From the IMG/VR virus record IMGVR_UViG_2526164632_000015, positions 1 through 12,112 of that record: 12,112 nt of DNA, one strand, 5' to 3'. The translations under genes and the position numbers were made by a program. Of the stretch, positions 202-12,058 are shown one piece after another (within the stretch, counting starts at the first letter, position 1; each line of letters starts with the position of its first letter). The stretch is from a virus (lineage: Duplodnaviria; Heunggongvirae; Uroviricota; Caudoviricetes). The notes beneath the pieces were generated by a model. That model was given only the letters and a program-made list of their open reading frames with translations. It did no database searches and was not told the DNA's origin.

Positions 202-1773
202 ATGGACACCTCACTTGCTCATGAGAATGCCCGCCTGCGGGCACTGTTGCAGACGCAACAGGACACCATCCGCCAGATGGCGAAATACAACCGCCTGCTC
301 TCACAGCGGGTGGCGGCTTATGCTTCCGAAATCAACCGGCTGAAGGCGCTGGTTGCGAAACTGCAGCGCATGCAGTTCGGTAAAAGCTCAGAAAAACTTC
401 GCGCTAAAACCGAACGGCAGATACAGGAAGCACAGGAGCGAATCAGAGCACTTCAGGAAGAAATGGCGGAAACGCTGGGTGAGCAATATGACCCGGTACT
501 GCCATCCGCCCTGCGCCAGTCTTCAGCCCGTAAACCGTTACCGGCCTCACTTCCCCGTGAAACCCGGGTCATCCGGCCGGAAGAGGAATGCTGCCCGGCC
601 TGTGGTGGTGACCTCAGTCCTCTGGGGTGTGATGTGTCAGAGCAACTGGAGCTTATCAGCAGCGCCTTTAAGGTTATCGAAACACAACGTCCGAAACTGG
701 CCTGTTGTCGGTGCGACCATATCGTGCAGGCAACAGTACCTTCAAAACCCATTGCACGCAGTTATGCCGGAGCGGGGCTTCTGGCCCATGTTGTTACCGG
801 GAAATATGCAGACCATCTGCCGTTATACCGCCAGTCAGAAATATACCGTCGCCAGGGCGTGGAGCTGAGCCGCGCCACGCTGGGGCGCTGGACAGGTGCC
901 GTTGCTGAACTGCTGGAGCCGCTGTATGACGTCCTGCGCCAGTATGTGCTGATGCCCGGTAAAGTCCATGCTGATGATATCCCCGTCCCGGTCCAGGAGC
1001 CGGGCAGCGGTAAAACCCGGACCGCCCGGCTGTGGGTCTACGTCCGTGATGACCGTAACGCCGGTTCGGAAATGCCCCCGGCGGTCTGGTTCGCGTACTC
1101 ACCGGACCGGAAAGGTATCCATCCACAAAATCATCTGGCCGGTTACAGCGGTGTGCTTCAGGCCGATGCTTACGGTGGTTACCGGGTGTTATACGAATCC
1201 GGCAGAATAACGGAAGCCGCGTGTATGGCTCATGCCCGGAGAAAAATCCACGATGTGCATGCAAGAGTGCCCACCGACATCACCACGGAAGCCCTGCAGC
1301 GTATCGGTGAACTGTATGCCATAGAGGCAGAAGTCCGGGGATGTACAGCAGAACAGCGTCTGGCGGCAAGAAAAGCCAGAGCTGCGCCACTGATGCAGTC
1401 ACTGTATGACTGGATACAGACTCAGATGAAAACACTGTCGCGTCACTCGGATACGGCAAAAGCGTTCGCATACCTGCTGAAACAGTGGGATGGCCTGAAC
1501 GTGTACTGCAGTAATGGCTGGGTGGAAATCGACAACAACATCGCAGAGAACGCCTTACGGGGAGTGGCCGTAGGCCGGAAAAACTGGCTGTTCGCGGGTT
1601 CCGACAGCGGTGGCGAACATGCGGCGGTGTTGTACTCGCTGATCGGCACATGCCGTCTGAACAATGTGGAACCAGAAAAATGGCTGCGTTACGTCATTGA
1701 GCATATCCAGGATTGGCCGGCAAACCGGGTACGCGATCTGTTGCCCTGGAAAGTTGATCTGACCTCTCAGTAA
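202..1773 (+). CDS. tnpC: IS66-family transposase TnpC (orf3), intact, 523 aa
   Basis: 523-aa ORF with GAGGA Shine-Dalgarno upstream. It has an N-terminal coiled-coil-like region, a CxxC...CxxC zinc-ribbon (CCPACGG...CCRCD) and the conserved IS66 transposase core ([38 protein letters not shown]). About 70% identical in the C-terminal half to the copy B TnpC. Confidence 0.9.
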
Positions 1774-1862: not shown

Positions 1863-2609
1863 TTAGCCACCCGGCACATTATTAACGGTAATTTCAGCCA
1901 CCGCAGCAAACTGACCATTACCGGAAATCACAGGGATGCTGACTTTTCCATCCTTAACCCCCGTCACAGTAATCGTCATATCTTTCACGCTAATGGTGGC
2001 TTTTGATGGATCGGCGGAAATCGCCCTGAATGTCTTATCCGTTGCATTTTCCGGTTCCACAGTAACGGTCAGGGTGGTTGTTTTCCCTTTTTCAACCGTA
2101 CCTGTCGGCGTTACCTTAATCGCAGTGACCGGCGTAATTTTGCTGCGTTCTTCCGCTACAGAAGGTTTACCCACGTTAGTGACTTTCACCGTGCGGGTGA
2201 TCACTTCTTTCGCCGTCACGGCCTTACCGATACTGCTGACCCAGCCACGAAACACATCCACCGTGCCATTCGGAAAACGGATTTTATAGGCCCGGACATC
2301 GCCGCTTTCAAACCAGCCTATAAGCCCTTTCTGGCCTTCCTCTCCCGGTTTCCAGGCCAGTGTAAAACTGGTATCACCTGCAGATTTCTGTCCCTGCCCG
2401 GTCGCGCTCCAGTCCGCGTCTTCATCATCCAGGTAGTTATCATCGTAGGATTCTGCCGTCATCTCGCCCGGCGTCAGATCCTTCACCTTAGCCAGTCGCT
2501 GCCAGTCATCATCTGACAACGGGTTGGCATAAGCATCATCCTTGCCGGTGTACACCCATAGTGTGGTGCCGGAACCTTTCACCGGCTCAAGAGGATTTGG
2601 TATTGCCAT
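1863..2609 (-). CDS. V: Major tail protein (lambda gpV homologue) with C-terminal Ig-like domain
   Basis: 248-aa ORF. Motifs [59 protein letters not shown] and [40 protein letters not shown] match lambda gpV as I recall it. C-terminal ~90 aa is a beta-rich Ig-like region. Confidence 0.92.
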
Positions 2610-2616
2610 ATCGTCC

Positions 2617-3015
2617 TCACATCTCGTAGGTAATTTTCCACAGGAGATCTGCCGATCCCCACATCATAAACTCATCATCCCGGCGGTAGTCATACCCCTG
2701 AAGATTCATCTTCAGCAGTAACGCACTGAGGCCGGGAACCGCCTCCAGCGCAGGAAGGATTTTCTCTTCCATCCACATATCCAGTGCCGAGTCCGGTTCT
2801 TTTGCCCTGAGAAAAACTTCAATATGCAGTGTCGCCTCCCAGGTCCCCTCATCAACGAACTCGTCAGCAGCAGACGCATCAGTCAGGTAAACAGCAACAG
2901 CAGGCAGTTCCTGTTCATCAATAAAAACCGGGCGGCCGTCAAACCAGCTCACCCGCTCAGAAATATTGTCTTTCAGGGCAGACAGAACTGCCGTCCGTAT
3001 TTCACGGTGTTTCAT
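2617..3015 (-). CDS. U: Tail terminator protein (lambda gpU homologue)
   Basis: 132-aa ORF. Start [11 protein letters not shown], internal LHIEVFL and C-terminal GYDYRRDD...SADL...ITYEM match the lambda gpU pattern. Sits between Z and V as in lambda. Confidence 0.88.
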
Positions 3016-3027
3016 ACACCCTCCCTG

Positions 3028-3657
3028 TCATTTTCTTTTCAGCACCAGGCGTAACTGATGCGTCATGGCTTTCATCATCTGCGCCGGTAATTTTTCCCGG
3101 TACATCCGGTCCCGTTCACGTTCAAAAGTTTCTGCCAGCGGTCCGGCAGTCGGAATTTTCACCACTTCAATCGGCAGACGGTAGCGTTTCGGCCTCCCTT
3201 TGCTGTCAGCACCGGTGGACGATGGTGCCCACGGCATACGCTGCATCACATGCCAGCGTCCGTTAGCCAGCCGGGTGATAAAGGCGTCCGGGATCCGTCT
3301 TTTCCCCACAATCAGCACACTGCCGCCCCCTTTCTTGACCGAACGCTCGCCTTTCTTTCGTCGCTTTCTGCGGGAAAGCCGCACGCTGGCCGTCCCCAGT
3401 TTTATGGCGGGCAGATTACCGGTGTTGATGATGACCTTCGCATAAATCCTGTCTGCGCTAGCCCGTTGCAGGCGGATACGCTCACGGATGAGACGGCGCG
3501 GAACCGCCAGCTCCCTGGCAACCGAAGAGGCCGTTTTCGCGATGATGGACTCCGCCACACGGTTAAGTGTCGTGGCGGCAGCCCGGGGAACGGCACGGCG
3601 GTCAATTGCATCCAGATTTTTCATGGCCTGCGCCAGACCTTTTATTGCCATACTCAT
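3028..3657 (-). CDS. Z: Minor tail protein Z (lambda gpZ homologue)
   Basis: 209-aa ORF. MAIKGL..., LPAIKLG, RLSRRKRRKKGERS..KGGGSVLIVGKRRIPDAFI..LANGRWHVMQR track lambda gpZ closely. Confidence 0.88.
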   Translation of the reverse strand: MSMAIKGLAQAMKNLDAIDRRAVPRAAATTLNRVAESIIAKTASSVARELAVPRRLIRERIRLQRASADRIYAKVIINTGNLPAIKLGTASVRLSRRKRRKKGERSVKKGGGSVLIVGKRRIPDAFITRLANGRWHVMQRMPWAPSSTGADSKGRPKRYRLPIEVVKIPTAGPLAETFERERDRMYREKLPAQMMKAMTHQLRLVLKRK

Positions 3658-3935
3658 TCCTGTTCGACAAAAATCCGGGGTTTACCGTTGTACGTGTCAT
3701 AACGGGTCACCGTCAGTGTGCGCCCCGCAAACACAACAACATCATGACGGGCCGGACGGTACCGGGCTGAAAACACCACCAGTGACAACTGGCTGCCCGA
3801 AAGCGCCCCCATCTCCGCGGACTCTTCCTCCGGCATCACGTCATACACGACGCCGTTAATCTCCGCCTGTTTGCCCATCACCCGAACGGTCGCCCCGTCC
3901 ATCCGGCAACACATTCGCGTAAACAGATCAGACAT
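3654..3935 (-). CDS. Small head-tail joining protein (gpFII-position, head-tail attachment-like)
   Basis: 93-aa ORF in the position lambda FII occupies before Z; start overlaps the upstream gene by 8 bp. Assignment is by position and size only. Confidence 0.5.
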   Translation of the reverse strand: MSDLFTRMCCRMDGATVRVMGKQAEINGVVYDVMPEEESAEMGALSGSQLSLVVFSARYRPARHDVVVFAGRTLTVTRYDTYNGKPRIFVEQE

Positions 3936-4254
3936 TGATTTTTACCGCCACAGTGGCGCTGTTTGCAGGAGCATTTTCCCAGGCTACCCCCGCGGCCACC
4001 GCACCCTCTGCAGCCAGCTGCACAACCCCGTCCTTCAGATAAACCACCGCGCCGGACTGAATGTCGTCAGCAGACTGTTTGGGCAGAAGGAACACGCCTT
4101 CGGCAAAACCGTCACCGGCATCACCGGCAGGAATATCTGTAATGGCCACGGCCACCATACTGCCGACCACCACCGCAGCACCGCTCAGGATGGTCTGATC
4201 TCCGGCATTCACCAGTTCAATGGTGGTACCGTCCTGTACAAAATTTTTCGCCAT
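3928..4254 (-). CDS. Small Gly/Ala/Val-rich head protein, putative decoration/cement protein (DUF2190-like)
   Basis: 108-aa ORF with a good Shine-Dalgarno (GGAGAAA about 8 nt upstream of ATG) immediately after the capsid gene. Composition is beta-rich G/A/V. Function inferred from position and composition. Confidence 0.5.
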   Translation of the reverse strand: MAKNFVQDGTTIELVNAGDQTILSGAAVVVGSMVAVAITDIPAGDAGDGFAEGVFLLPKQSADDIQSGAVVYLKDGVVQLAAEGAVAAGVAWENAPANSATVAVKINV

Positions 4255-4270
4255 AATGCTGTTTCTCCGG

Positions 4271-4293
4271 ACAGCCCCTGTGGGGCTGTTTTT
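4271..4293 (+). terminator. Perfect 8-bp stem / 3-nt loop hairpin followed by T5 on the + strand
   Basis: ACAGCCCC-TGT-GGGGCTGT followed by TTTTT (4289-4293). Lies in the 86-bp gap between the capsid and decoration genes, directly upstream of the decoration gene's ribosome-binding site on the minus-strand mRNA. Confidence 0.4.
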
Positions 4294-4300
4294 CAGGCAT

Positions 4301-4318
4301 AAAAAAGCCCTTTCGGGC
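4301..4318 (-). terminator. Short GC hairpin with GAAA loop followed by U6 on the minus (coding) strand, just after the capsid stop
   Basis: Minus-strand reading is GCCC-GAAA-GGGC then TTTTTT (reverse complement of 4301-4306). Only a 4-bp stem, so at best a weak or partial terminator. Confidence 0.3.
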
Positions 4319-4340
4319 AGTGATTGTGATAACTCGGTTA

Positions 4341-6320
4341 TCAGGCCACCGACGAACGCACCAGCCCGCGCCAGTCAAGTGGTGCCACTCCGGCATCAAT
4401 ACGGATTTTTGTGGCAATGCCGTCAGTGGTGAAACCTTCCTGCTGATCAATGTATGGCGTGTCCACACCATCCAGCCAGGCCACTTCAATGGTGTCAGTG
4501 CCCTGTGCCGCCGCCAGATACCAGGTTTTCGGATCTGCCGCATCAAGACGCGCTTCTGCAATCACCTCAGCAAAGTTCTGGATGGGGTTAATGACACCGG
4601 CGTTTGCATCCGCCCCTTTCACACTGGCCGATTTGATGGTCTGGTTCGCCACCGTCTCCAGTGCCACCGGTACCAGCATAAAGGCCGGACGGATATTCAG
4701 GGCGCGATCGCCTTCTTTCTGCAGGCGCATCATCTGACGGGCCGCATCCAGTCCGGAAACGGAAATCCCACCGGTGGCAATATTTTTGTGATCGGCATGG
4801 AACAGCGCCTTACCGTCTGACAGTTTCGGGTTATCCGTCAGCACCTTGTAAACCAGGTCACCAATCGTTGCCTTCGCCGCACGCCCCATCTTCATCGGCA
4901 CGTCCACCAGCATATTCAGATCATCATTGATAATGGCCTGGCGGGTGATGGAGAAAATCTCCCCGTAAGTGGCCAGTGCAATGGTCTCCTTGCGATCTGA
5001 GGTGGTGATGTATTTATACTCCGCCCCCTCACGAACCTGGCGCAGAGAACCAAAACCGCCCATCCCCACGCGATACGCTGTTTTGAAGTCTGACAGGCGT
5101 CCCTTACGGGTCCACTTCTGGAAGGTTTCTTCTGATTCCTCCCAGCCCTGGATCAGCCCCTTGTTCGACACATCCAGCAGAATATTGCCAAAATCAGAGG
5201 TGCTGTGCGTCAGCGCCAGCCCGACCATCTGCATGGGGTTATAACTGGCCACCCCAATACCGCGCTCCGTCAGTGACATGCGAGCCCATTCACGCAGGGT
5301 CATCCCGTTATAGGCGTTATCCTTCTCGACATTTTCAAATCCGGCACGGGCCAGCATCGCCTGGCGGATCCCGTCCCCCACAAAATTGCCGTTTCCGGCA
5401 TAAATATGAGCCGGTGTATTTTTGTTGGTCGGCGAGGACTCCTTGCCCATTTCATTCAGCAGACGTTCACGGGCCATTTCCAGCGAACAGTCAGGATCAG
5501 CCACGCACTGTGCCTGAAGCGTCTGATAGCGACCGCCGAACATGGCAAACAGATCGTTAATGCCTGACATGCGGGCTTTCTGTTCTGCCATAACGCGGGC
5601 GCGAATGGTCGCCTCATCAGACACTGCCGGTACCGGTGATGGTTCTGTTACCGCCGGTGCAGGGATTGTCACTGTGGTATCACGCGGGGCACTGTTGTAT
5701 GGCTGCGTGATCATATTTCGGATGGATTCCGGCATCTTTTTAAATTCCTCTGTACGTTTTGACTGAATACATGCCATTGCCTTAACGGCTGGCGTCACCT
5801 GGTCTGCAAATCCGTGTGCCAGACACTCGGCACCGGACATCCAGGTCTCATCCGCCAGCATGGCGGCAATTTCATCGGTAGTTTTTCCGGTTTTCTGCGC
5901 ATATACCGGCACCATAACCGACTCAAGTTTGTCCAGACGTTCGGCATAAGTGCGCATTTTCTCCGCATCACCACCGCTGATCCCCCAGGGTTTATGGATC
6001 ATCATGAAGGCATTTTCCGGCATAATGACCGTGTCACCGGCCATCGCAATCAGGGATGCCATCGAGGCGGCAACGCCATCCACATACACGGTAATGGCCG
6101 CACCGTGATTTTTCAGGGCATTAAAAATGGCGATGCCTTCAAAGACATCGCCACCCGGTGAGTTGATGTGGAGATTAATGTGGGTGATATCACCCAGGGC
6201 ATTCATATCGCTGACAAACTGCTTCGCGGTAACTCCCCAGAAACCAATCTCGTCATAAATATAAATATCCGCCTCACCCTGACCACCCGCCTGCATCCTG
6301 AACCAGGATTTATTCTTCAT
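4341..6320 (-). CDS. Fused head maturation protease (ClpP-like) / scaffold-like linker / HK97-fold major capsid protein
   Basis: One uninterrupted minus-strand frame. N-terminal ~200 aa carries ClpP-type motifs (HINSPGGDV, VDGVAASMASLIAMAGD, MMIHKPWG). A charged, helix-prone linker follows, then a ~300-aa C-terminal capsid-like region. The longest ORF runs to 6512, but that extension overlaps the portal coding region; start chosen at M65 (ATG 6318-6320, MKNKSWFR...). Start codon is uncertain; 6296 is an alternative. Confidence 0.8.
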   Translation of the reverse strand: MKNKSWFRMQAGGQGEADIYIYDEIGFWGVTAKQFVSDMNALGDITHINLHINSPGGDVFEGIAIFNALKNHGAAITVYVDGVAASMASLIAMAGDTVIMPENAFMMIHKPWGISGGDAEKMRTYAERLDKLESVMVPVYAQKTGKTTDEIAAMLADETWMSGAECLAHGFADQVTPAVKAMACIQSKRTEEFKKMPESIRNMITQPYNSAPRDTTVTIPAPAVTEPSPVPAVSDEATIRARVMAEQKARMSGINDLFAMFGGRYQTLQAQCVADPDCSLEMARERLLNEMGKESSPTNKNTPAHIYAGNGNFVGDGIRQAMLARAGFENVEKDNAYNGMTLREWARMSLTERGIGVASYNPMQMVGLALTHSTSDFGNILLDVSNKGLIQGWEESEETFQKWTRKGRLSDFKTAYRVGMGGFGSLRQVREGAEYKYITTSDRKETIALATYGEIFSITRQAIINDDLNMLVDVPMKMGRAAKATIGDLVYKVLTDNPKLSDGKALFHADHKNIATGGISVSGLDAARQMMRLQKEGDRALNIRPAFMLVPVALETVANQTIKSASVKGADANAGVINPIQNFAEVIAEARLDAADPKTWYLAAAQGTDTIEVAWLDGVDTPYIDQQEGFTTDGIATKIRIDAGVAPLDWRGLVRSSVA

Positions 6321-7811
6321 GCTGGCTGTCGGTGGCCTGCTGACGCTGTTGTTCAGTTCCGGCACTGTTGCCTCCTTTGTCGTTGACGGGGTCAGTATCA
6401 AAGACCAGCCCCAGTCTGCTGTTTTCATCAATTTCAGCCTTGCGGCGACGTTTGACCTCATCCGGATTGCGCCCGCCGGCACGCACCCAGTCAGATTCTG
6501 TCGCTGCACCACCCCGGATCTGAATTCTCCAGGCTTCAGCTTCCTTAACCGGGTCGATCCACGGCATCACCGGACCGGAATACGTCGCGTTATATAGCGT
6601 TTTCATCTCCACATCCGCCGGAATTTTCAGCAGACCTGCCGCAACCACCATATTCAGCCATGTCCGGTACACCGGACGGGTTACCGCGCCAATAAAACAG
6701 TCCTGCAGGATCAGGTAACCATCCGTGGACTCGACCAGCTCCTGCCGCTGGGCACTGTAGGTGCCGTTATAGTTACGCGCCGCACTGGAAAAACTCAGAC
6801 GACTGCCCGCTGCCACTGCACGCAACTGGCCGTTGCGGAAAGTTTCAAGGTTGGGATTGGGACGGTCTGATTTGACCATGCCGATATCCTCGCCCTTGCG
6901 CAAATCGTCATAAATAATACCCGGGGTGATATGGACTTCCCGGTCGGTTTCTTTGATCCCCGGCTCTTCATAGTCCTGCCCGTCACCTTTACGGATATAC
7001 AGTCCCAGCGCCGCGGCAATACGCGCCGCAGTGAGTTCCGCATCCTCATACTCCTTAAGGGCACTGATCCGCATCAGCACCCCCGATAACATGGATGAGC
7101 CTCGCGTCTGATGCAGACGACGAGTGAACTTCAGGTGGATCATTTTTCCGGCAGCGATTTCTTTCGTATCACTCTGCCGGCCGCTGACCGGATAATTTTT
7201 ATAAACCAGATATTTTTCGGTCTTCCCCACTCATCAAGAAAAACCCCCTGATTCAGTCCGGCGGATTCATCAGTGCGCATGGGAACAAAATCCGGCTCCA
7301 TCGCCTCAAGCCAGAATGGCACTCCCGCCGTCCGTTCCAGACCGTTTCCCGCACCACTGACCATCTGCGCAAACACTTCACCATCCCGCAGCCAGGTCCG
7401 CAGCAGTAAACGTTCAAGCACGGGACGGGTATACTGCCCTGTCACATCCGGACTCACGGACCACTCAGCCCACAACCGGCGGATATCCGCAGCCAGCTCT
7501 GCCGCCATTTCCCCGTTTTTTCGTAATGGCTGAGGCTCCACAATAATTCCCCTGGCACCAATCACCCGCTCTTCCAGCTTGTCAAACACACCAATCACCA
7601 GGTCATGATTGATATCCAGAAAACGGGCCTGCTCCCGCAGGGAAACCGCACCGTATTTACTGAGCTGATCAGCAGAGCGATTTTCCCGCCGGGCTTTATG
7701 TGTCCGGGTCGGTTTCACCGCCTCATAGGCCATGATTAACGCCCTTGAACGCAGTCTGGCTGCTTTCCAGCCGGGGGAAAACACGCCTATCACATCATCA
7801 ATAATTGCCAT
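6310..7811 (-). pseudogene. Phage portal protein, split by a single-base frameshift (or homopolymer sequencing error)
   Basis: Two overlapping minus-strand ORFs (7811-7140, 223 aa; 7230-6310, 306 aa) sum to a typical ~530-aa portal and sit between gpW and the protease/capsid gene. The frame switch must lie between 7233 and 7200, where there is an A5 run on the coding strand (T5 at 7213-7217 on +). Adding one A would read ...LDEWGRPKKYLVYKNYPVSG... Confidence 0.75.
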
Positions 7812-8047
7812 TAAAACCTCGCCAGTTTAAATCCTGGTTTTCCCCGCCTGCGGCTCACCATCGCGGCAAGCCTGCGTTCCCACTCCTGACGTCCGGCGCG
7901 GATCTGAGAAAGGCTTTCCAGCGTCAGTTGCTGTCCGTTGAAGGTGACAGACTTCCCCTCCAGTACGGCCATTTCCGCTTCACGGTACCGCTGTATCATT
8001 TCTCTGGCTTCTTCTGTGCTCACAACCAGCCTCCTGATGTTATCCAT
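7811..8047 (-). CDS. W: Head-tail joining protein (lambda gpW-like)
   Basis: 78-aa ORF between terminase large subunit and portal, as W is in lambda. C-terminus ...RRRGKPGF resembles the lambda gpW C-terminus (...RRRGPAGF) as recalled. Stop overlaps portal start (TAATG). Confidence 0.65.
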   Translation of the reverse strand: MDNIRRLVVSTEEAREMIQRYREAEMAVLEGKSVTFNGQQLTLESLSQIRAGRQEWERRLAAMVSRRRGKPGFKLARF

Positions 8048-9640
8048 GGATTATCTTCCGCACGCTCCGTCCGCAGTTTTTTCTTCCGGCGACGGCGTTT
8101 TTCTGCCCCGGCCGTCAGTTCCGGGGATACCGTTTCACCAGAACGCTCCTGCGGGAAGACGAGCCACGTTTCCCGCTGTGCCCAGTCCGGTGCGGAGGGC
8201 CAGCGGATCTTTTCGTAACCATGCAGAACGGCAAGCGCATCCGCATAAACCAGCAGGTCAAACGCCTCGTTAGCTCCCCTGCCCGGTTTTCGCCATTTTC
8301 CGTCACTGCCGCGCTCTTCATAGGTCAGCTCATCGTAAAACCATCGCCCCAGCCAGTCGGGAAAGTGGATATAGTTCGGCCCTGGTGTGTCACGCCACAG
8401 GGCATTATTTACACGGTCCTTAAACGCATCCGTCTGAACCAGCCACAGCGCGACATCGCCACTGGCTCTGGCACGGCGGGCACTTCTGCCGGTATTATCC
8501 GGGAAGGTACGGTTAATCAGCCTGTCACGGCGAAGTCCATCCCCCTTGAACAGAAACACCCTGTTGCCCAGTCCGTCACTCCGGCAACGACACCAGAAAC
8601 GATAGGCGTTATCTGTCACCCCGGCTTCCCCTCCCGTATCCACCGCCATGGCCATCAGACGCATGCGCACATCCGGATCAGAAGCCAGCGGCCATGTTTT
8701 ATGGAACACATCCGTCAGCAACAAATCCCAGTCCTCCGGATATGCCGCCGGATCAACCGGCAGACTTTCACCGTTGGGACTGCAGCGCAGTGAATGCCGG
8801 ATGTTATAGCGATCAACAATCCAGCGTTCCCCCTGCTCTCCGTATCCGGTGATCTGCACAACAAAACGGCGATTTTTACCGCCCTGTACGTCAACCGTTG
8901 CCTCAATAAAACGCACACCATCCGGCACAGATCGCCGGGGAAACGGCTCGGCACGCTGTTCAAGCAGTTCACTTTTACGCTGTTCCGTGGCTGAACGGGG
9001 CAGATAGGGGCGTCCGATATCGGTGTTCACCACCGCTTTCAGGGTCTCTTCACTGCCGGTTCGCTCATACTCTTCTTCTGCCGCCAGCAGTTTAAAAATC
9101 AGTTGTTCCCAGGTCTGAAACGCCGCAGCCGGCCCCTCCATCCAGAATGACGCAATCCGGGAATTTCGTGGCGTTCCGGTGATACTGCCGTCCGCCACCG
9201 CCCGTTCACCTTCACGAAGCCAGATCCCTTTGTTATTCAGTTCGCGTTTCTGCTCAGGGGCAATCAGCCCGCGACAATGCGGACACATCAGACGGGCAGC
9301 CTGACCGGCAGCCACAAAATCCGGGTTATTCCGGTATCCGGTCATGTTATCCATCACCGGCTGAAAATATTCCCCGCAGTGCGGACACGGCCAGTACCAC
9401 CGGCGGCGGTCTCCCCGGTTATACAGTGACAGGATCCCCGTTGTTGGCGGTGCCTCATGTGCGCCGCCACAGCGCCATTTGGTGTCAGTGATATCCCGCC
9501 CCGGCGAACTCTCGACCAGGGTCATCCCCGAGGACATAAAGGTGGTGGTACGCTTTGATGCCAGGGTGAAGGCATCCCCTTCCCCGTCCACGTTTTCAGG
9601 GAAACGGTCATAATCCGTCAGCGCCACACGACGGTAATCC
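8020..9640 (-). pseudogene. A: Terminase large subunit (lambda gpA family), N-terminally truncated by IS66 copy B
   Basis: About 540 codons of open frame with a CPHCGE...CPHC zinc-binding segment and a C-terminal region (IHFPDW..., NEAFDLLVYADALAVL) resembling lambda gpA. Typical gpA proteins are ~640 aa; the frame runs straight into the IS terminus at 9641. The ORF track extends it to 9723 only because the frame stays open by chance inside the IS. Confidence 0.8.
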
Positions 9641-9672
9641 GTAAGCGTCGTCTCAGCACCGTCTGGCAGATC
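9641..9672. repeat. Left terminal inverted repeat of IS66 copy B
   Basis: GTAAGCGTCGTCTCAGCACCGTCTGG...; matches the right-end reverse complement at positions 1-8 and across the CAGCACCGT region. Imperfect. Confidence 0.55.
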
Positions 9673-9721
9673 CTGAAATTCCTGAGAGAATAGTGGACAC
9701 CAAATATGGTGGACGCTATCC

Positions 9722-10126
9722 ATGAAATCATTAACCGCAGTGCGTAAAAAAAGCCCTAATTATCCCGTTGAGTTCAAAATCAAAATGGTTGAACTCTCGC
9801 ATCGACCAGAGATCTCCGTAGCGCAACTCGCTCGTGAGCATGGGATCAACGATAATTTGCTGTTCAAGTGGCGCCAGTACTGGCGCGAAGGAAAACTACG
9901 TCCTCCTTCAACAACAGAAAACAACGTGCCTGAGCTGCTCCCGATAACACTTGATGCCGAAGATGTTGTCCCTACAACCTCCCCCCGGTCACAACCTGTA
10001 GCTGCTGCGACACCTGAATCACTCAATATCAGCTGTGAAGTGACGTTCCGGCACGGATCACTCCGTCTGAATGGTGCCATCAGCGAAAATATCCTGAACC
10101 TGCTGATACGGGAGCTCAAACGTTGA
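9722..10126 (+). CDS. tnpA: IS66-family TnpA (orf1), small helix-turn-helix protein
   Basis: 134-aa ORF, first gene inside the IS, followed by tnpB with overlapping stop and start. The true start codon may be internal. Confidence 0.75.
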   Translation: MKSLTAVRKKSPNYPVEFKIKMVELSHRPEISVAQLAREHGINDNLLFKWRQYWREGKLRPPSTTENNVPELLPITLDAEDVVPTTSPRSQPVAAATPESLNISCEVTFRHGSLRLNGAISENILNLLIRELKR

Positions 10127-10470
10127 TCCCATTACCATCAGGGACAAAGATCTGGCTGGTCGCTGGCATCACCGATATGAGAAACGGCTTCAACGGCCTG
10201 GCGGCAAAGGTGCAGACGACGCTGAAAGACGATCCGATGTCAGGTCACGTTTTTATCTTCCGTGGGCGTAATGGCAGTCAGGTAAAGCTCCTCTGGTCTA
10301 CCGGCGATGGACTGTGTCTGCTGACCAAACGGCTGGAGCGCGGCCGCTTCGCCTGGCCGTCAGCCCGGGATGGCAAAGTGTTCCTCACACCGGCACAGCT
10401 GGCGATGCTGCTGGAAGGTATCGACTGGCGGCAGCCTAAAAGACTGCTTACGTCCCTGACTATGTTGTAA
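10123..10470 (+). CDS. tnpB: IS66-family TnpB (orf2)
   Basis: 115-aa ORF (MIPLPSGTKIWLVAGITDMRNGFNGLAAKV...). Apparent TTG start overlaps the tnpA TGA stop (TTGA), suggesting translational coupling. Confidence 0.8.
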   Translation: MIPLPSGTKIWLVAGITDMRNGFNGLAAKVQTTLKDDPMSGHVFIFRGRNGSQVKLLWSTGDGLCLLTKRLERGRFAWPSARDGKVFLTPAQLAMLLEGIDWRQPKRLLTSLTML

Positions 10471-10518
10471 GCCTCTTTATCCTGGTCGACGCTGAATGAG
10501 CCTGGTAATATACCCGGT

Positions 10519-12058
10519 ATGAGCAGCTCACTTCCTGACGATATCAATGCACTGAAACGTCTCCTTGCCGAACAGGAGGCGCTGAACCGTGCCCTGCTGG
10601 AAAAGCTGAACGAGCGTGAACGCGAAATAGACCATCTGCAGGCACAGCTGGATAAGCTGCGCCGGATGAACTTCGGCAGCCGCTCCGAAAAAGTCTCCCG
10701 TCGTATCGCACAGATGGAAGCTGACCTGAAGGCACTTCAGAAAGAAAGTGATACCCTTACCGGTCGGGTTGACGACCCGGCCGTGCAGCGCCCGCTGCGT
10801 CAAACCCGCACCCGCAAACCGTTCCCCGAATCACTCCCCCGCGATGAAAAACGGCTGCTGCCGGCAGCATCATGCTGCCCGGAATGTGGAGGCTCACTGA
10901 GCTATCTGGGTGAGGATGCCGCCGAACAGCTGGAGTTGATGCGCAGCGCCTTCCGGGTTATCCGGACTGTACGTGAAAAAGCATGCCTGTACTCAGTGCG
11001 ATGCCATCGTGCAGGCCCCCGCGCCTTCACGGCCCATCGAGCGGGGTATCGCAGGACCGGGGCTGCTGGCCCGCGTGCTGATCTCAAAGTATGCAGAGCA
11101 CACCCCGCTGTACCGCCAGTCTGAAATGTACGGCCGCCAGGGCGTGGAGCTGAGTCGTTCACTGCTGTCGGGCTGGGTGGATGCATGCTGCCGGCTACTG
11201 TCACCGCTGGAAGAAGCGCTTCAGGACTATGTGCTGACTGACGGTAAGCTCCATGCTGATGACACGCCTGTCCCGGTGCTGTTGCCAGGCAATAAGAAAA
11301 CGAAGACCGGGCGGTTATGGACCTACGTTCGTGACGACCGTAACGCCGGGTCAACGCTGGCGCCGGCGGTGTTGTTCGCTTACAGCCCGGACAGAAAAGG
11401 CATCCATCCGCAGACCCATCTTGCGGGGTTCAGTGGTGTACTGCAGGCGGATGCATACGCCGGGTTCAACGAGCTGTACCGGGATGGCCGGATAACGGAA
11501 GCCGCCTGTTGGGCTCACGCCCGCCGTAAAATCCACGATGTGCACGTTCGCACCCCGTCAGCCCTGACGGAGGAAGCGCTGAAACGGATCGGCGAACTGT
11601 ACGCCATCGAGGCAGAGATAAGGGGAATGACGGCGGAGCAGCGCCTTGCCGAACGTCAGTTGAAAACGAAACCGCTGCTGAAATCCCTGGAAAGCTGGCT
11701 GCGTGAAAAGATGAAAACCCTGTCGCGACACTCAGAACTGGCGAAAGCGTTCGCATACGCCCTGAACCAGTGGCCGGCGCTGACGTACTATGCAGATGAT
11801 GGCTGGGCTGAGGCGGACAATAACATCGCTGAAAATGCGTTGCGGATGGTCAGTCTGGGCCGCAAAAACTACCTGTTCTTCGGTTCGGATCATGGAGGAG
11901 AGCGGGGAGCGCTGCTGTACAGCCTGATCGGGACGTGCAAACTGAACGGAGTGGAGCCAGAAAGCTACCTCCGCTATGTCCTTGACGTCATAGCCGACTG
12001 GCCGATAAACCGGGTCGGCGAACTGCTCCCCTGGCGCGTAGCACTGCCGACTGAATAA
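10519..12058 (+). pseudogene. tnpC: IS66-family transposase TnpC (orf3) with a +1 frameshift at an A5 run (10976-10980)
   Basis: ORFs 10519-11124 and 10973-12058 together align colinearly with the intact copy A TnpC. Removing one A from the run restores ...[20 protein letters not shown]..., parallel to copy A ...[20 protein letters not shown]... Confidence 0.8.

Follow-up and report, generated by a model that had tools for sequence, protein, structure and literature searches.

Hairpins resembling intrinsic terminators are common within the antiterminated late operons of phages, and their role was regarded as unestablished by the authors who described them (PMC8022706). For such intra-operon terminators of P22-like phages, the proposed roles are partial termination or attenuation, and the blocking of transcription that is not antiterminated (PMC8022706). 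Closest to the locus studied here are the terminators of phages mEp213, mEp043 and mEp460 (GenBank JQ182733, JQ182734 and JQ182728), which occupy the same site, between the fusion and decoration genes. All three phages carry the same sequence, GCCCGTAAGGGC plus T7, whereas the DNA analysed here has a GAAA loop and T6. Their annotations are computational and cover only the first hairpin (hereafter H1) with its T-run, leaving the second hairpin (H2) unmentioned. Our literature search found no description of H2 or of the conserved spacer in front of it, and for terminators after capsid genes it returned generic genome-annotation papers only.

The stretch of DNA that was analysed (the window, 12,112 nucleotides) carries every phage gene on its minus strand. 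The gap of interest (4255-4340, 86 bp) separates the ATG of the decoration gene (4254-4252) from the TGA of the capsid gene (4343-4341), both on the minus strand. The initial annotation had identified the flanking genes as capsid and decoration genes, with which the Pfam matches agree. The genes of the window are the following.

8020-9723, minus strand: terminase large subunit, truncated
7811-8047, minus strand: small gene with a weak Pfam DUF6148 match, below the cutoff
7140-7811 and 6310-7230, minus strand: lambda-family portal, in two ORFs
4341-6512, minus strand: ClpP-like prohead protease/major capsid protein fusion (Pfam CLP_protease, 1.8e-36; Phage_capsid_4, 1e-55)
3928-4254, minus strand: capsid cement/decoration protein, DUF2190 (Pfam Phage_cement_2, 5.2e-19; decoration-protein alignment A1)
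3654-3935, minus strand: Gifsy-2-family head-tail protein
3028-3657, minus strand: gpZ
2617-3015, minus strand: gpU
1863-2609, minus strand: gpV
9722-10126, 10123-10470, and 10519-11124 plus 10973-12058, plus strand: parts of an IS66-family element, namely the HTH orfA, TnpB and a split transposase

As the longest ORF, the protease/capsid fusion comprises 723 aa (RefSeq starts are shorter in relatives), and the RefSeq product name in near-identical genomes, protease/capsid fusion, agrees with our assignment. In the surroundings of the gap, the DNA shares 99% identity with the head module of the Stx1 phage VT1-Sakai and of several Stx2 phages, and it was found in 533 of 5426 complete E. coli genomes. 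Since IS66-family elements flank the segment, the copy in the window is a decaying prophage remnant, of the Stx1-phage type; as the terminase is truncated, the portal split and IS66-family elements inserted, the gap may have lost its function in this copy. One such element (9722-12058, plus strand) is inserted in the terminase large-subunit gene (8020-9723, minus strand), which is without its N-terminal ATPase part. The same insertion is annotated as ISEc22 in E. coli FDAARGOS_1059, where the positional counterpart of the small gene at 7811-8047 is called a "hypothetical protein". Another IS66-family transposase (202-1773, plus strand, 523 aa) lies directly downstream of the major tail gene V, in place of the G/T/tape-measure genes of relatives, and the two copies stand in the same orientation on either side of the head-to-tail segment. 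The portal ORFs (6310-7230 and 7140-7811) overlap, one matching the N-terminal and the other the C-terminal half of the Pfam model. Their separation is probably a frameshift (pseudogene), and the portal is whole (1503 nt) in FDAARGOS_1059 and Sakai Sp15.

Both hairpins that had been reported in the 86-bp gap, at 4271-4293 and 4301-4318 with their T-runs, were confirmed from the sequence. Listed along the coding strand, the elements of the gap are as follows.

4327-4343, minus strand: third hairpin, GATAAC-CGA-GTTATC, with a 7-bp stem that overlaps the TGA stop of the capsid gene (folding; clade-specific)
4307-4318, minus strand: H1, GCCC-GAAA-GGGC, terminator hairpin with a 4-bp G/C stem and a tetraloop (folding, conservation, GenBank annotation in relatives)
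4301-4306, minus strand: U-tract of the terminator, T6 (column identity 1.00)
4290-4300, minus strand: single-stranded spacer ATGCCTGAAAA, family consensus ATRYCTRAAA (nearly invariant alignment columns)
4271-4289, minus strand: H2, ACAGCCCC-ACA-GGGGCTGT, 8-bp hairpin (folding, covariation, strand asymmetry)
4265-4268, minus strand: Shine-Dalgarno sequence GGAG of the decoration gene, 2 nt past H2 (invariant GGAG columns)

The coding strand thus reads TGA-TAACCGAGTTATCACAATCACT-GCCCGAAAGGGC-TTTTTT-ATGCCTGAAAA-ACAGCCCCACAGGGGCTGT-CC-GGAG-AAACAGCATT-ATG, in the order H1 plus T6, an 11-nt spacer, the 8-bp H2, 2 nt and the GGAG Shine-Dalgarno sequence. On the plus strand, H2 (4271-4289) reads ACAGCCCC-TGT-GGGGCTGT, a perfect 8-bp stem with a 3-nt loop, and is followed by TTTT at 4290-4293 (T5 when T4289 is included). 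On the coding strand, CCGGAG comes next and there is no sense-strand U-tract. The third hairpin at 4327-4343 was overlooked in the initial annotation and is kept, with the loop CGC, in close relatives only; small hairpins of unrelated sequence are also possible at the stop codons of mEp213 and mEp460.

Compared with dinucleotide shuffles, H1 folds with -7.9 kcal/mol (z = -2.9), and H2 with -14.5 kcal/mol as coding-strand RNA (z = -3.7) and -16.2 kcal/mol as plus-strand RNA (z = -3.6), so the energies are not of the weak kind that had been named beforehand as a reason for dropping the two structures. Structure over the whole gap is mildly above that of shuffles (z = -1.8 for the minus strand and -2.3 for the plus strand). 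Within the 12-kb window, H2 is the sole perfect hairpin of at least 8 bp; as shuffled sequences average 1.2 of these, its 8-bp stem is not significant on its own sequence alone. The combination of a 4-bp all-G/C stem, a 4-nt loop and T6 occurs once in the window and in 0 of 200 shuffles.

For the comparative analysis, the decoration proteins of six divergent phages were aligned, and the alignment served to retrieve 133 related loci from viral contigs as well as bacterial genomes; further loci came from a subsequent scan with a DNA pattern. Of the first 139 loci, nearly all have a capsid homologue 60-110 nt upstream of the decoration gene. A common layout, consisting of GCCC-N4-GGGC, T7, the ATRYCTRAAA spacer, a hairpin of 5-10 bp, 0-4 nt and GGAG, recurs in the genera Escherichia, Salmonella, Klebsiella, Enterobacter, Kluyvera, Rahnella, Sodalis, Providencia, Proteus, Morganella, Pantoea and Edwardsiella; 72 distinct homologous gaps, from phages of at least 12 genera of enterobacteria, entered the comparison. 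Lack of conservation had been the other reason for dismissal given in the initial annotation, and both hairpins proved to be kept in homologous gaps. Mean pairwise identities among 18 lineage representatives are 0.31 for the 3' UTR after the stop codon, 0.83 for H1 (stem invariant, loop variable), 1.00 for the T-run, 0.73 for the spacer, 0.53 for H2 and 0.57-0.70 for the flanking coding DNA. H1 and the T-run form a conserved island, with the adjacent 3' UTR and the flanking coding DNA diverging more. Judged from these sequences, chance clearly does not suffice to explain the structure of the gap; the decisive evidence is its conservation and covariation among relatives. Chance palindromes in an intergenic gap could appeal to the perfect 8-bp hairpins that shuffled sequence yields at 1.2 per 12 kb on average, but they are already refuted by the comparative data, i.e., conservation in at least 12 genera, covariation and fixed positions, and their probability is practically nil.

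The stem of H1 and the T-run are essentially invariant in the 72 distinct relatives, and the loop varies (GTAA, GTCA, ATCA, TTAA, TAAT and others). Some relatives extend H1 by one A-U or G·U pair, and most have T7 as opposed to the T6 seen here; one other contig, L085, also has T6. Using the score of d'Aubenton-Carafa et al. (1990), with a threshold of d > 0, the sense strand of the window scored d = 19.9, and positive values were obtained for 97 of the 98 distinct T-run-bearing relatives. H1 has the G/C-rich stem with a short loop, the uninterrupted U-tract and the positive score of an intrinsic terminator, but its 4 pairs fall short of the stem length of at least 5 pairs used in our scan. 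For this reason H1 was not called in the consensus terminator scan of the window; H2 was not called either, because its full stem leaves 4 T in the 8-nt plus-strand tail. GenBank annotators placed a rho-independent terminator at the homologous hairpin in mEp213 and mEp460, and distant relatives (Pasteurellaceae, Microbulbifer, Pseudomonas and Phyllobacterium) have a longer G/C hairpin plus T-run in the same place. The covariance model built from the gap also weakly matches (21 bits) positions 5413-5459 of mEp460 (L002), an annotated terminator after tail gene V. In mEp460, a terminator follows each of the two abundant structural genes, those for capsid and tail tube; in Sakai Sp15, the gap after V measures just 13 nt.

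Because the H1 stem never varies, covariation is uninformative for this hairpin, and its conservation could reflect sequence-specific recognition or recombination instead of folding. A 4-bp stem is at the short extreme among intrinsic terminators, and lambdoid late operons are transcribed by a Q-modified, terminator-resistant polymerase. Taken together, termination at H1 is expected to be partial at best, and under Q antitermination it may be negligible in lytic growth. In form, H1 and its U-tract correspond to a minimal intrinsic terminator.

A U-tract terminator is also a typical Hfq-binding 3' end, and EHEC lambdoid prophages encode many sRNAs (PMC4104026, PMC13502914), so that H1 might be the terminator of an sRNA produced from the 3' end of the capsid gene, like other sRNAs of EHEC prophages. 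This origin is very improbable: the 25 nt from the stop codon to H1 are unconserved (0.31), no upstream site is predicted by the promoter scan, and the multicopy HnrS/EcOnc10-12 maps between the lysis and terminase genes. Among published coordinates of Hfq-bound sRNAs, none lies at the homologous gap of Sakai Sp15 (2911142-2911228). HnrS/EcOnc10-12 and other Hfq-bound sRNAs were rejected as candidates for the element, their published coordinates being at lysis/terminase or among tail genes. The consensus promoter scan found no nearby promoter on either strand.

H2 is present in 87 of the 98 distinct T-run-bearing relatives and ends 0-4 nt ahead of GGAG in all 48 relatives that were parsed. Its sequence differs widely, with 26 distinct 5' arms and energies of -7.8 to -18.6 kcal/mol (average -13.8). 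Examples of paired arms are CAGCCCC/GGGGCTG, CGCCCC/GGGGCG, CGGCACC/GGTGCCG and TCTGGCT/AGCCAGA, as well as TCCGGTGC/GCATCGGA and GGCCTCTC/GAGAGGCC. RNAalifold recovered only 3 H2 pairs from a MAFFT alignment, in which H2 is misregistered for some clades, and the gaps were realigned with a covariance model (R1). In the resulting alignment of 72 distinct sequences, which as an alignment of this type leans towards its model, compensatory changes affect 5 of the 7 H2 pairs, and pairing is kept in 91.6% of the H2 cells. For covariation, H2 scores 0.266, compared with 0.111 ± 0.009 for shuffles (0 of 500 reach 0.266) and with at most 0.079 when the pairing partners are slid. The unfitted MAFFT alignment points in the same direction (compensatory changes in 4 of the 7 H2 pairs), the signal being weaker because H2 is out of register in some rows. 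When the region 3900-4700 was scanned with Rfam 15 at E = 10, only spurious matches to eukaryotic lncRNAs and snoRNAs were obtained.

A palindrome in DNA can fold as RNA from either strand, but wobble pairs are not transferable to the complement. Among the H2 variants, 24 cells are G·U and 5 are A·C, and the sense RNA is more stable than the antisense RNA in 50 of 61 distinct variants; with a margin of at least 2 kcal/mol, 20 variants favour sense and 1 favours antisense. Moreover, many H2 variants have a GNRA or UUCG loop when read on the coding strand. These loops and the G·U wobbles show that H2 has been selected as a coding-strand RNA.

The strand of selection bears directly on the arrangement proposed in the initial annotation, in which the two hairpins face each other with outputs on opposite strands. 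If they were convergent terminators, H1 would stop sense transcription, and H2 with the plus-strand T-run would stop antisense transcription from entering the capsid gene. The plus strand of the window does read GGGGCTGTTTTT, with -16.2 kcal/mol and a terminator score of 13.6, and the score is positive in 21 distinct relatives. In most relatives, however, it is negative, and the plus-strand tail is mostly GTTTCAGG, ATTTCAGG or AATTTTAG; the antisense score is positive in 21 of 89 computable distinct relatives as opposed to the 97 of 98 found for sense. The G·U wobbles and stable tetraloops belong to the coding strand, and the promoter scan predicts no downstream plus-strand site that could feed antisense transcription. 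We consider convergent terminators quite improbable. H2 plus T5 does not hold as a plus-strand terminator, the T-run occurring in a minority of lineages and selection acting on the coding strand, and the face-to-face look results locally from the spacer ending in an A-rich stretch. A hairpin lying directly against the Shine-Dalgarno sequence of the decoration gene is a more fitting description of H2 than a plus-strand terminator. The function suggested in the initial annotation, a partial terminator or an mRNA stability element, fares better and is the most plausible reading. The coding-strand hairpin with its T-run is of the kind annotated as a rho-independent terminator at the homologous site of mEp213 and mEp460; it was the geometry that was wrong.

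The position of H2 next to the Shine-Dalgarno sequence also brings to mind an operator, in H2 or H1, to which a phage or host protein binds to repress or activate decoration translation, as in autoregulation of the coat-protein or gene-32 type. The H1 stem and the spacer are conserved as sequence and not via covariation, as a binding site might be. At the same time, the stem and loop of H2 vary freely (loops include ACA, GCAA, UUCG, UGAAC and others), no base in a bulge or loop is conserved, and the loop of H1 is variable too. This free variation makes a sequence-specific operator unlikely for H2, an argument that does not extend to H1 and the spacer; for the gap as a whole, we see little likelihood in protein-bound operators.

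H2 resembles an intercistronic or 5' stabiliser in being a stable intercistronic hairpin without a sense U-tract. It is found wherever the terminator hairpin is of the 4-bp form and is missing where that hairpin is long, as it is in Morganella psychrotolerans prophages with a mazEF insertion at the junction. This association, which involves few independent lineages, suggests that H2 might supply a "strong hairpin" function as an exonuclease barrier, as 5' protection or as an insulator of the ribosome-binding site.

The spacer sequence is conserved and has no partner with which to pair. Together with H1 and the T-run, it is highly identical in genomes in which both flanking genes diverge, as would be anticipated if the gap were a recombination "linker" or a moron-insertion junction between head-gene modules, without an RNA function of its own. 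Prophages of Morganella psychrotolerans, in which mazEF and its own terminator are inserted exactly here with the spacer retained, also fit this picture. In two of them (L027 and L029, approximately positions 770-1500), a mazE/mazF pair and a long terminator hairpin lie directly upstream of the decoration gene; the T-run and the ATGCCTGAAAA spacer mark the point at which mazEF is joined, and there is no H2. The pair looks like a moron inserted at the capsid/decoration junction. A linker cannot explain the compensatory changes in H2, the fixed distance to the Shine-Dalgarno sequence or the strand-specific wobbles, and it is improbable as an account of the whole gap.

Other uses of the spacer region were considered and rejected. 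A small ORF starting at the spacer ATG (ATGCCTGAA...) is not kept, since this ATG is ATA or GTA in most relatives. Alternative pairing of the H1 3' arm and the U-tract with the A-run and the H2 5' arm is available to E. coli-type sequences; by inspection it is impossible in the Proteus, Providencia and Pantoea types and was therefore rejected as a conserved switch. Scanning viral contigs with the pattern GGGCT7ATNNCTNAAA returned many unrelated terminators, in a number compatible with chance plus composition. In viral contigs (L143-L262), the string GGGC-T7-AT(R)CCT(R)AAA likewise stands behind many terminator hairpins that are unrelated and longer. In L153 (approximately 2404-2424) and L237, a GGAG-abutting hairpin again comes next, although the genes that follow are different ones. 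The second variable position of the string is enriched in C; chance plus composition may suffice for the recurrence of the string.

Given the anatomy, conservation, covariation and strand of selection established here, we hold it to be moderately probable that the gap combines a leaky intra-operon terminator with a hairpin that stabilises mRNA or insulates the ribosome-binding site. Both RNA elements would act on the minus-strand late-operon transcript. H1 and the U-tract would constitute a minimal Rho-independent terminator closing the protease/capsid gene. With only 4 G-C pairs, H1 would be leaky, and Q-modified polymerase would for the most part pass it; its main effect would be to halt polymerases without antitermination or lower their number, and it would leave some transcripts with a 3' end just past the capsid gene. 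The most likely role of H2 would be in mRNA stability and insulation. In read-through transcripts, it might act as a barrier to 3'-to-5' exonucleases and shield the capsid mRNA; after cleavage in the U/A-rich spacer, it might form a protective 5' structure on the decoration message and leave the ribosome-binding site unobstructed. The termination efficiency, the processing and any effect on the capsid:decoration ratio are inferred. Capsid and decoration proteins are perhaps needed in similar amounts.

The conserved spacer is not accounted for by a pure stability model, and its sequence would suit a processing site or a factor-binding site. This brings us to a more ambitious proposal, which we regard as unlikely though worth stating: the mini-terminator, the ATRYCTRAAA spacer and the Shine-Dalgarno-abutting hairpin might be one dedicated post-transcriptional module of enterobacterial lambdoid head operons. 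Two variants are possible: cleavage in the spacer might at once leave the capsid mRNA protected at its 3' end and the decoration mRNA protected at its 5' end and activated for translation; or the site might be read by a host factor, e.g., RNase E, Hfq or S1. Either variant, if true, would determine how much capsid protein there is relative to cement protein.

The module is carried by Shiga-toxin phages and by hundreds of E. coli genomes. With an invariant mini-terminator and a covarying hairpin, for which natural variants provide the compensatory "mutants", the site offers a clearly delimited case for testing. Should H2 govern the stability of the message or the translation of the decoration gene, the dosage of lambdoid late genes would be tuned beyond the strength of translation initiation. 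Annotating the site would also prevent the plus-strand T-run from being mistaken for an antisense terminator.

Among known systems, the lambda nut boxB (GCCCUGAAAAAGGGC) is similar to H1 in stem sequence and in its GNRA-type loop; unlike boxB, H1 has a 4-bp stem and a non-conserved loop of 4 nt, is followed by a U-tract and is located between late head genes. H1 was accordingly rejected as a lambda-type nut site, as its loop varies, no boxA-like sequence is nearby and it lies in the late operon. In the P22-like phage L (PMC8022706), a terminator-like hairpin likewise ends the procapsid module of an antiterminated late operon with a single promoter. However, its head genes are of an unrelated family and no second hairpin is described. 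T-phi of phage T7, located directly after major capsid gene 10, the structural gene in greatest demand, is also a partial terminator with its downstream genes fed by read-through; it differs in having a long stem and in acting on T7 RNA polymerase, whereas H1 would face the host polymerase, Q-modified late in infection. As for H2, its closest analogues may be the malE-malF REP, Rhodobacter puf and ompA 5' stabiliser structures, to which it would be comparable as a stable, G/C-rich intercistronic hairpin. Its placement between a highly needed gene and the genes downstream would likewise be that of an mRNA-stabilising hairpin. H2 is not a REP element, and its tight apposition to a Shine-Dalgarno sequence is not known from the malE-malF, puf and ompA examples. 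The terminator part of the gap is thus known by annotation, and H2 with its spacer is of a familiar class of intercistronic RNA structures.
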